Counted from the stretch's first letter, positions 57,580-59,003 are shown. The stretch: 64,000 bases of DNA from an uncultured Rikenellaceae bacterium (GCA_964600025.1 CAZRHJ010000004.1:11833-75832), one strand, 5' to 3'. Numbers and translations are program-made. Notes: generated by a model not told the origin, from the letters alone.

Positions 57580-57614
57580 AAACGCCAAACAGTCATAATT
57601 GTTTGGCGTTTTTA
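57580..57614 (+). terminator. S9 peptidase terminator
   Basis: AACGCCAAAC-loop-GTTTGGCGTT followed by TTT. Confidence 0.75.
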
Positions 57615-57774
57615 TTGTAAGTTTTTTTTGATTTTCCGAAATCTTACAAGCTCCCAATAAACTCGGATCTCTTAGGCTATTTTGCATATATAACGTAGCG
57701 TACTGGCGTACGTGAAGCAGAGCATCGGCGAAATAGACAAGATAGGCGAGTTTCGTTTTTAGCGGACAGTACTA
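57613..57774 (-). mobile_element. Repeat family copy K: core near-identical to C/D/J, with a variant far end
   Basis: ...TTTTCCGAAATCTTACAAGCTCCCAATAAACTCGGATCTCTTAGGCTATTTTGC...GACAAGATAGGCGAGTTTCGTTTTTAGCGGACAGTACTA. Confidence 0.85.
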
Positions 57775-57779
57775 ATTTT

Positions 57780-57968
57780 CTATAAATCTATATCGGTGTC
57801 TGATTCATCTTCAATATAGATGTTTTCTTCAAAATATTTTTTAAACTTCTTTCTGCTCCACAAAACAAAATAATCATCATTTTCTTTGCAGTTCTTTCTG
57901 CTGGGGCTTTGGTTTTCGCCGCCTGTATAGGTCTTGTTTTCACCTACTGCTTTAATAATTTCTGCCAT
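57780..57968 (-). CDS. Orphan 62-aa protein with an acidic tail
   Basis: The ORF starts at MAEIIKAVG and overlaps the upstream small ORF by 17 nt. I recognise no family. Confidence 0.35.
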   Translation of the reverse strand: MAEIIKAVGENKTYTGGENQSPSRKNCKENDDYFVLWSRKKFKKYFEENIYIEDESDTDIDL

Positions 57969-58200
57969 TATATCTATTTTTAATTTTACGTGCATCAAAA
58001 TCATTTTCTATATCTCTATATAGAGTTTTCAGACCAATATACCCAATATATGTAGGGTTGTAAGTTGCCAAAACCGATAGTAAGAATATTCCTCTTTTTA
58101 ATTCTATTTCAATATATCCGTATTCAAGTTCGTTGGCTTCAAAATATTCTTCAAATAAATTCAAAATACATTTGTAGTCTTCTTCTGTTATTTTAAGCAT
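57952..58200 (-). CDS. Orphan 82-aa protein
   Basis: The ORF starts at MLKITEEDYK (ATG at 58200). The tracked 165-aa version runs through the divergent promoter and the opposite gene. I recognise no family. Confidence 0.35.
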   Translation of the reverse strand: MLKITEEDYKCILNLFEEYFEANELEYGYIEIELKRGIFLLSVLATYNPTYIGYIGLKTLYRDIENDFDARKIKNRYNGRNY

Positions 58201-58283
58201 AGGCAAATATCCATATATTTGGTATCGTAAACGAAAATTGGCTGTAAAAAAAATTACAATGAAGGTTATTAGATAAATTTGTG

Positions 58284-58291
58284 TATATTTG
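58284..58291 (+). promoter_or_regulatory. -7 box TATATTTG upstream of the membrane protein at 58314
   Basis: Matches TAnnTTTG. Confidence 0.4.
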
Positions 58292-58313
58292 TATCTACTA
58301 AAATAATAATGAT

Positions 58314-58850
58314 ATGGGTATAATAATAAAATTGTTCTCTCCCGGTTTGCTTTTGTTTTATTTATTTGCAAGTCTATTGTTTTGCGAAGGATTAATGTAT
58401 TTTCTTCTTCCGACCGAAAAACTGATAATACTTTCAACTGTATTTGCATTGAATGTGCTTGTGCCTATATTCCTCAAACCGCTTTCTCGTAGCACAAAAG
58501 TAGTATATGTGCTTTCGGTGTCTTTTCTTTTGGTTTTAAGCACCTACATACTTTCCTACTACATCTATTATCCAATAGTTACGTCTATTTATATTATTTC
58601 TGTTTTGGTTTTTACGCTTAGATATGCTATTAATGTAGATTATCAAGTTATGGCTATGGCTGCACTTGCCAGCTATATGTATTATTTGTTTTATGCACAA
58701 ATATGTTATTGTGCCGTCCCTTTTACTATCATCATTCTTGCAATAGGAGCGGTTTCGGCAATCCGATTATACCACAAAAAAACAAGCCCCAAAAATATTC
58801 TTTTAGGACTTGTGTTAGGTGTACTTAGCACCTTATTTGTGTTTTTTTAG
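58314..58850 (+). CDS. Polytopic membrane protein of unknown function
   Basis: 178 aa with five or six hydrophobic spans. A TATATTTG promoter box lies 23 nt upstream. The TAG stop lies in the terminus of repeat copy L. Confidence 0.5.
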   Translation: MGIIIKLFSPGLLLFYLFASLLFCEGLMYFLLPTEKLIILSTVFALNVLVPIFLKPLSRSTKVVYVLSVSFLLVLSTYILSYYIYYPIVTSIYIISVLVFTLRYAINVDYQVMAMAALASYMYYLFYAQICYCAVPFTIIILAIGAVSAIRLYHKKTSPKNILLGLVLGVLSTLFVFF

Positions 58851-59003
58851 AACTGTCTGCTAAGCACTAAACTCGTCTATCTCGTCTATTTCCGCTATGC
58901 TCTTCTTTACGTATGCCTGTACGCTACGTTATGGCTATCAGCGAAATAGCCTAAGAGGTAGGAGTTTATTAGGAGTTTGTGAAATTTTTACCAGACAGCA
59001 ATA
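58848..59003 (+). mobile_element. Repeat family copy L: full-length, moderately diverged
   Basis: TAGAACTGTCTGCTAAGCACTAAACTCGTCTATCTCGTCTATTTCC...GAAATAGCCTAAGAGGTAGGAGTTTATTAGGAGTTTGTGAAATTTTTACCAGACAGCAATA. Confidence 0.85.

Follow-up and report, generated by a model that had tools for sequence, protein, structure and literature searches.

We analyzed a 64,000-nucleotide stretch of DNA (contig C4:11833-75832, hereafter the window) from G000, a 2.07-Mb Rikenellaceae metagenome-assembled genome (MAG) of 98 contigs with 34.7% G+C and 93.8% completeness, and concentrated on a segment where two inverted copies of a MITE (miniature inverted-repeat transposable element), which we call K and L, flank three small genes. 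Copy K lies on the minus strand at 57624-57775, in the spacer between an S9-family peptidase gene and a gene for a protein of 62 amino acids (aa), and consists of a core of ~140 nt followed by a truncated, deviant tail (CGGAAAATCAAAAAAA). Next to it is a pair of overlapping genes on the minus strand, of which the first, P0001 (57952-58200), encodes an acidic protein of 82 aa and the second, P0002 (57780-57968), the acidic protein of 62 aa, with an overlap of 17 nt. A divergent spacer of 113 nt (58201-58313), which presumably holds promoters, separates the pair from P0003 (58314-58850, plus strand), the gene for a 178-aa polytopic membrane protein with seven predicted helices. Copy L, a complete 156-bp short form of the element, follows on the plus strand at 58848-59003, in the spacer between P0003 and a minus-strand gene for a 705-aa TPR-AraC regulator (59018-61135).

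The first-pass annotation of the window had described K and L as inverted copies of one repeat family that enclose three open reading frames (ORFs) and turn their ends inward, and this description holds. A repeat search and nhmmer place the copies 1,072 bp apart, and both inner ends read TAG(T/A)ACTGTC(C/T)GCTAA (TAGTACTGTCCGCTAA for K as the reverse complement and TAGAACTGTCTGCTAA for L). The repeat search also recovered inverted arms of 86 nt at 57690-57775 and 58847-58932 (84% complementary, 1,071 nt apart), together with a second arm pair at 57639-57690 and 58936-58987. ORFs of 82, 62 and 178 aa are present as annotated, and none of them has a match in Pfam, NCBIfam, PADLOC or PHROGs. The outer limit of K, annotated at 57613, had to be moved, since the conserved part stops near 57624-57639 and positions 57613-57623 are flank beside the peptidase terminator. 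The three genes had further been called accessory-looking, which agrees with their distribution: P0003 has a homologue in one of six congeners, the small pair is found in one of six congeners and in one other Rikenellaceae genus, these occurrences are at different loci, and the segment has a G+C content of 26-30%. The G+C content falls from 33-42% to this level exactly at K. It was an overstatement that everything else in the window is housekeeping, as the six congeners lack a full-length orthologue of the neighboring TPR-AraC regulator and match its HTH domain alone. The regulator gene, which is followed by comF, shares the low G+C content of the small genes (27-31%).

We characterized the repeat family across the genome with a profile that has a 143-column core. 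The profile identified 318 loci in G000, 184 of them at least 100 nt long, or about one copy per 11 kb. Copies fall into two main size classes of ~157 bp and ~255 bp, with the termini TAGTATTGTCCGCTAA ... TTACCGGACAGCAATA. Direct repeats of 9 bp flank the 53 two-ended copies perfectly in 20 cases and with one mismatch in 6, where the null expectation is 0.1% and 0.8%, respectively. Because 26 of the 53 therefore show duplications with no more than one mismatch, far above the null, we conclude that the family is a genuine MITE that makes 9-bp target-site duplications. A third end class, ending in ...CGGAAAGATAAAAATT, has no 3′ terminal repeat yet is bounded by perfect 9-bp duplications, so the element apparently transposes with a non-palindromic right end as well. 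Examples of this class (...GATTTCGGAAAGATAAAAATT) are located at C47:3916, C13:18188, C37:1347, C17:9013 and other sites. At C16:10726-11303 four MITE units stand head to tail, 14-15 nt apart, and arrays of two units are present at several other sites. A search of 60 other genomes of the family, congeners G001 and G006 among them, did not recover the element, and no Rfam family matches it. Insertion sequences are often missing from assemblies, and in this 94% complete MAG we found no transposase of PF01609, PF00665 or PF12762, the only transposase families searched.

The copies are distributed unevenly among intergenic regions. Against a simple gene call (1,646 genes on 86% of the genome), just 2 of the 184 copies share more than 30 nt with a called gene. 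Copies are present in 48 of 148 convergent spacers (32%), in 75 of 1,224 tandem spacers (6%) and in 10 of 177 divergent spacers (6%). The element points the same way as the genes in tandem spacers at a ratio of 71:14, and its 5′ end faces the 3′ end of a gene 139 times versus 24 times for the 5′ end of a gene (Fisher p = 8e-11). This bias in residence and orientation suggests either that terminator regions are targeted or that a polar function is under selection.

Both K and L occupy convergent spacers, the former where the S9 peptidase gene meets the 62-aa gene and the latter where the membrane protein gene meets the TPR-AraC gene. With an occupancy of 32%, a copy in each of two neighboring convergent spacers is expected in about 10% of cases. 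The distance between the copies is also unexceptional: 11 of the 128 adjacent copy pairs have gaps of 0.5-1.5 kb, where random spacing (mean 11.25 kb, 184 copies) predicts ~10.4, and 5 of these 11 pairs are inverted. We surveyed the genes enclosed by the 11 pairs and by some pairs with wider or narrower gaps, naming genes by reading their translations. Enclosed genes include rpsO-rplU-rpmA, 5-formyl-THF cyclo-ligase, ROK glucokinase, CdaA and YraN, as well as a Cof-type hydrolase and a polyprenyl synthase with a U32 peptidase. Close pairs thus enclose housekeeping genes too, and bracketing by two copies is therefore uninformative about mobility in this genome. The position of the three genes between K and L, which had been singled out as special, is most probably a product of chance and ordinary for G000.

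The two copies themselves differ in structure. With the family profile, nhmmer aligned L at 58848-58986 on the plus strand (E 2e-34) and K at 57775-57639 on the minus strand (E 1e-45). Copy L has every feature of the family, including both terminal inverted repeats, of which the 3′ one is TTACCAGACAGCAATA. At its exact canonical boundaries it is flanked by GTGTTTTTT (58839-58847) and GTATTTTTT (59004-59012), which match at 8 of 9 positions, and this duplication of its own indicates that L was inserted alone. The first three bases of L, TAG, are the stop codon of P0003. Within 58839-59012, removal of L and one copy of the duplication would let the P0003 frame run ~24 codons further into the 3′ end of the TPR-AraC gene, an outcome that a T-run leaves uncertain. 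Copy K belongs to the family by core identity only. Set against 95 full copies, its tail (CGGAAAATCAAAAAAAAC...) fits none of the end classes and has no 3′ terminal repeat. No target-site duplication was found for K, the best candidate being a 7/9 match that lies 79 nt off, beyond the peptidase terminator.

Sequence identity separates the copies as well. K matches the family consensus at 91% identity, with its nearest copy (96%) on contig C46, and L, at 79% identity to the consensus, is among the most diverged copies. Between K and L themselves identity is 79%, at the 20th percentile for copy pairs overall. Taking identities and end structures together, we conclude that K and L differ in age and subtype. 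RNA folding gave z = -1.5 for L and z = 0 for K, values that do not support a role for either copy as a strongly structured RNA.

Based on these results, we suggest that the locus records two independent MITE insertions in neighboring convergent spacers, a history to which we assign a probability of roughly 0.8. A species-specific, high-copy MITE that colonized about one third of the convergent spacers would have inserted here on two separate occasions, L into the spacer between the membrane protein and TPR-AraC genes and, later and independently, K into the spacer between the S9 peptidase and 62-aa genes. L would be old and complete, having inserted by itself, and it now provides the stop codon of P0003; K would be younger and 3′-truncated, and unable to serve as an outer transposon end any more. 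The two copies enclose two divergently transcribed, lineage-restricted units, neither of which depends on the repeats, and the genes would be expressed from their own promoters. Nothing indicates movement of the segment as a unit. The MITE was not found in G001 or G006, yet a P0003 homologue is present in G001 and the small pair in G006; the genes therefore exist independently of the repeats. The same three-gene cassette did not turn up elsewhere, as the genes lie apart at other loci in relatives, and we conclude that the three genes are not a co-inherited cassette.

Four observations weigh against a history of two independent insertions. The duplication of L lies in a T-rich context, which makes a chance match at 8 of 9 positions more likely than the null of 0.9%, and the lack of a duplication at K could also mean a rearrangement there. 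The outer flanks of the two copies match at 7 of 9 positions (GTAAGTTTT versus GTATTTTTT) if the boundary of K is shifted by a few bases within the T-run, a match that we regard as chance. Finally, the nearest genomes are ~70-75% identical in DNA, which leaves no direct comparison of filled and empty states at this locus; a metagenome scan for close strains with the TPR-AraC protein returned one distant HTH match and nothing close.

We also considered recombination or deletion at the MITE, whereby K would be a breakpoint joining either the small pair or all of the low-G+C region as far as the TPR-AraC gene to the block of thyA, folA and the S9 peptidase gene. This is improbable, even if the missing duplication and truncated tail of K, the drop in G+C exactly at K, the different gene order around the S9 peptidase gene in G001 and the absence of the TPR-AraC gene from congeners are all consistent with it. 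A search for a partner copy with the reciprocal flank (ATAGAAAAT, the inner 9-mer of K) yielded nothing convincing, ordinary decay or a small deletion accounts for K equally well, and synteny with relatives is too eroded for a breakpoint to be placed. In the window the block in question comprises thyA (55159-55953), folA (55957-56445) and the S9 peptidase gene (56475-57557), all on the plus strand, with a terminator hairpin just 3′ of the last. The S9 peptidase gene of G001 (C105) has rpmB/rpmG upstream and a kbl-like gene downstream, an order wholly unlike that of the window, and a short N run directly follows its stop codon (C105 ~2440-2460).

The proposal of a composite-element-like island, in which K and L would be the ends of a MITE-flanked composite transposon, with the transposase supplied in trans and the three genes as cargo, is very unlikely to be correct. 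Its attraction lies in two inverted copies of one family 1.07 kb apart, a lineage-restricted cargo of low G+C, the 7/9 match of the outer flanks with a shifted K boundary, and the MITE-flanked composite-like structures in the literature (PMC6382973). Intact outer termini on both copies are lacking, however, because K is truncated on its outer side, and no single duplication bounds the whole block, L having one of its own. The two copies are of different subtypes, and their spacing and the enclosure of genes are at chance level. Additionally, the 1.07-kb segment is single-copy, with no second DNA or protein match in G000 and no match in plasmid or phage collections, and its genes occur singly, unlinked, at other loci in relatives. 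The absence of the three transposase families from the assembly also speaks against a composite transposon, but it is a weak point given the incomplete MAG and the frequency with which insertion sequences go unassembled.

The membrane protein P0003 has a sparse set of relatives. A word-indexed search of 5.8 billion proteins returned only P0003 itself, and a search of genome contigs for loci related to P0003 alone returned nothing. A six-frame search of relatives identified the homologue in G001 (170-175 aa, 38% identity, E 4e-23), the only one among the six congeners, and HMMER against 1.8 billion cluster representatives identified four more of 184-189 aa, which are 26-35% identical and collinear over their full length. 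L17, F18, L37, S81, D109, Y123 and G169 are invariant in the family alignment. Homologues stand directly after rpoN, between an M28 peptidase gene and a DUF3575 gene, and after gyrA and a TPR gene. In G001 (C72:1-2019) the contig begins at the homologue, which runs into the start of a PqqD-family gene, with an NTP_transf_5 gene coming next, a cluster that may be of the peptide-maturation type; G000 has neither a PqqD-family nor an NTP_transf_5 gene. Weak matches were obtained to membrane proteins of 208-257 aa encoded after rpoN in another Rikenellaceae genus, and no such membrane protein gene follows rpoN in the window's own genus. An AlphaFold2 (AF2) model of P0003 from the single sequence has seven helices with a predicted local distance difference test (pLDDT) score of 57, and Foldseek against the PDB gave nothing meaningful with it. 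A reading of P0003 as a degenerate PAP2-like phosphatase, made by eye from a C-terminal motif, was dropped for want of profile or structure support. Two plus-strand TAnnTTTG boxes found by pattern search at 58274-58281 and 58284-58291, 22-40 nt ahead of the P0003 ATG, are putative promoter elements. From these comparisons we conclude that P0003 is a real gene of a sparse, unnamed Bacteroidales-type family of ~185 aa; its homologues stand in ordinary chromosomal contexts, and it is not tied to mobile DNA.

To score coding potential in the small overlapping pair, we used a phase-specific fifth-order Markov model trained on 897 long ORFs of G000. At +0.19 bits/codon the P0001 ORF exceeds the 99th percentile of the spurious antisense ORFs, and the P0002 ORF scored +0.04 bits/codon, at the 95th percentile, with all five other frames negative. 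A 165-aa form of P0001 starting from an ATG at 58449 was rejected, as the upstream extension scores -0.27 bits/codon and is thus non-coding. A six-frame search of G006 identified a P0002 homologue of 58 aa (BLASTP E 7e-10), which has in common with P0002 the motif CKExDD[YF][FW][VI][LF]WS[KR][KR][KR]FxxYF and an acidic tail. The 83-aa ORF upstream of it overlaps by 11 nt and aligns with P0001 over 56 residues (Smith-Waterman 46, shuffle p = 0.002-0.003). A profile search added a P0002-like protein of 61 aa in G087, from another Rikenellaceae genus (shuffle z = 6-9), where the partner is an unrelated basic ORF of 89 aa with a 1-nt overlap. The motif of the P0002 family reads K-E/N-x-D-D/S-x3-[LF]-W-S-[RK]-x-[RK]-F-x-[KH]-Y-F, followed by the acidic tail. 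Searches of 400 genomes from the order and 280 from the class yielded no further members. For P0001 and P0002 the word-indexed search across 5.8 billion proteins gave self-matches alone, a silence that is weak evidence against these small ORFs because the same search missed P0003 homologues of 26-38% identity.

In both G000 and G006 the sequence GATATTTGC stands just ahead of the first gene's ATG, 3 nt away in G000 (58201-58215, minus strand) and 5 nt away in G006 (L040:1244-1256). It may be a -7 promoter box that yields a nearly leaderless mRNA; a pattern search of the 58201-58313 spacer found no canonical TAnnTTTG box on the minus strand. The pair in G006 lies between galK and sulP, the latter encoding a SulP transporter, in a genome that has no match to the MITE. 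Downstream of galK in G000 (C2:39300-41800) we noted, by eye, a cytosine-5 DNA methyltransferase gene (FAGIGG, GFPCQPFS) and an adjacent 253-aa ORF, probably a restriction enzyme. As G006 has the 83/58-aa pair and sulP there (JAVVUK010000019.1), the spot downstream of galK is variable between congeners.

Structure and family searches assigned neither small protein. AF2 of P0001 from a two-row alignment gave an alpha-beta-beta-beta-alpha arrangement with pLDDT 57, the matches of this low-confidence model in Foldseek against the PDB had E values of at least 0.25, and PDB sequence and profile searches returned chance-level matches alone. A Pfam match of P0002 to MraZ (E = 0.13, on the conserved motif) was rejected, since it falls well short of the cut-off and neither the G006 nor the G087 homologue shows it. 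It is highly improbable that the two small ORFs are not genes and P0003 alone is real, since the self-matches in the word-indexed search, the lack of a curated family, the poor P0001 model and the missing minus-strand box are outweighed by size-matched P0002 homologues with a conserved 20-residue motif in two other genomes, by the recurrence of the overlapping two-gene architecture in G006 and G087, and by the coding score of P0001 and its alignment with its positional counterpart in G006. We conclude that the pair is real, translationally coupled and patchily distributed, that its conserved component is the small acidic protein, and that P0002 defines a small family restricted to Rikenellaceae.

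These results bear on how repeats around genes are read. Where MITEs occur every ~11 kb and are concentrated in convergent spacers, an inverted pair around a few genes is no sign of a mobile unit, and a proper test of mobility considers each copy's own duplication, intact outer ends and genome-wide controls. The analysis also defines two uncharacterized small protein families, one of membrane proteins with seven helices and ~185 aa, the other of acidic proteins of ~60 aa with a conserved motif, always encoded by the second gene of an overlapping pair.

The small pair invites comparison with type II toxin-antitoxin modules, which likewise consist of two small co-directional overlapping genes with patchy distribution and variable position. 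P0001 and P0002 are two small, adjacent, co-directional genes with an overlap that measures 17 nt in G000, against 11 nt for the G006 pair and 1 nt in G087, and, as in such modules, a conserved acidic partner is combined with differing upstream partners, acidic and of 82-83 aa in G000 and G006, basic and of 89 aa in G087. Unlike those modules, the pair has no recognizable DNA-binding domain and resembles no known toxin or antitoxin; no homology to a toxin, antitoxin or defense family was found in Pfam, NCBIfam, PADLOC, PHROGs or PDB sequences. Our tentative suggestion for the pair, at low probability, is an accessory module of two small components that may be toxin-antitoxin-like. It is unlikely, though conceivable, that it represents a previously undescribed module confined to Rikenellaceae, toxin-antitoxin-like or defense-related, in which a WS[RK]x[RK]FxxYF acidic protein would be combined with interchangeable upstream partners at variable chromosomal spots.

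P0003 compares most closely with the members of its own ~185-aa family (P0005-P0008 and the G001 homologue), with which it shares length and collinearity throughout. Identity to them is only 26-38% and the neighbors differ in every case, P0003 alone standing here divergent to the small pair.

For the segment as a whole, the nearest models are composite transposons of the Tn5/Tn10 type and the MITE-flanked units of Acinetobacter, among which class 1 integrons and the MITE-297 mer region are known, as far as the summary in PMC6382973 extends. In these, as here, two inverted copies surround a few accessory genes. Unlike composite transposons, the K-L block has one truncated outer end, a copy with its own duplication and no duplication bounding the whole, and it is single-copy with genes that are unlinked in relatives.

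The element itself is best compared with bacterial MITEs such as BrickBuilt of Porphyromonas gingivalis (PMC4596501) and MITEAba12 of Acinetobacter (PMC6382973). It differs from these in its strong preference for convergent spacers, in the third end variant that lacks a 3′ terminal repeat and in having no cognate transposase identified; its sequence is unrelated to any Rfam family, and among 60 family genomes it was not found outside the species. Like them, it is short, non-coding and high-copy, with terminal inverted repeats and duplications of fixed length, 9 bp in this case, and like them it is strictly intergenic, with 2 of 184 copies overlapping a called gene, and can supply the stop codons of its neighbors.

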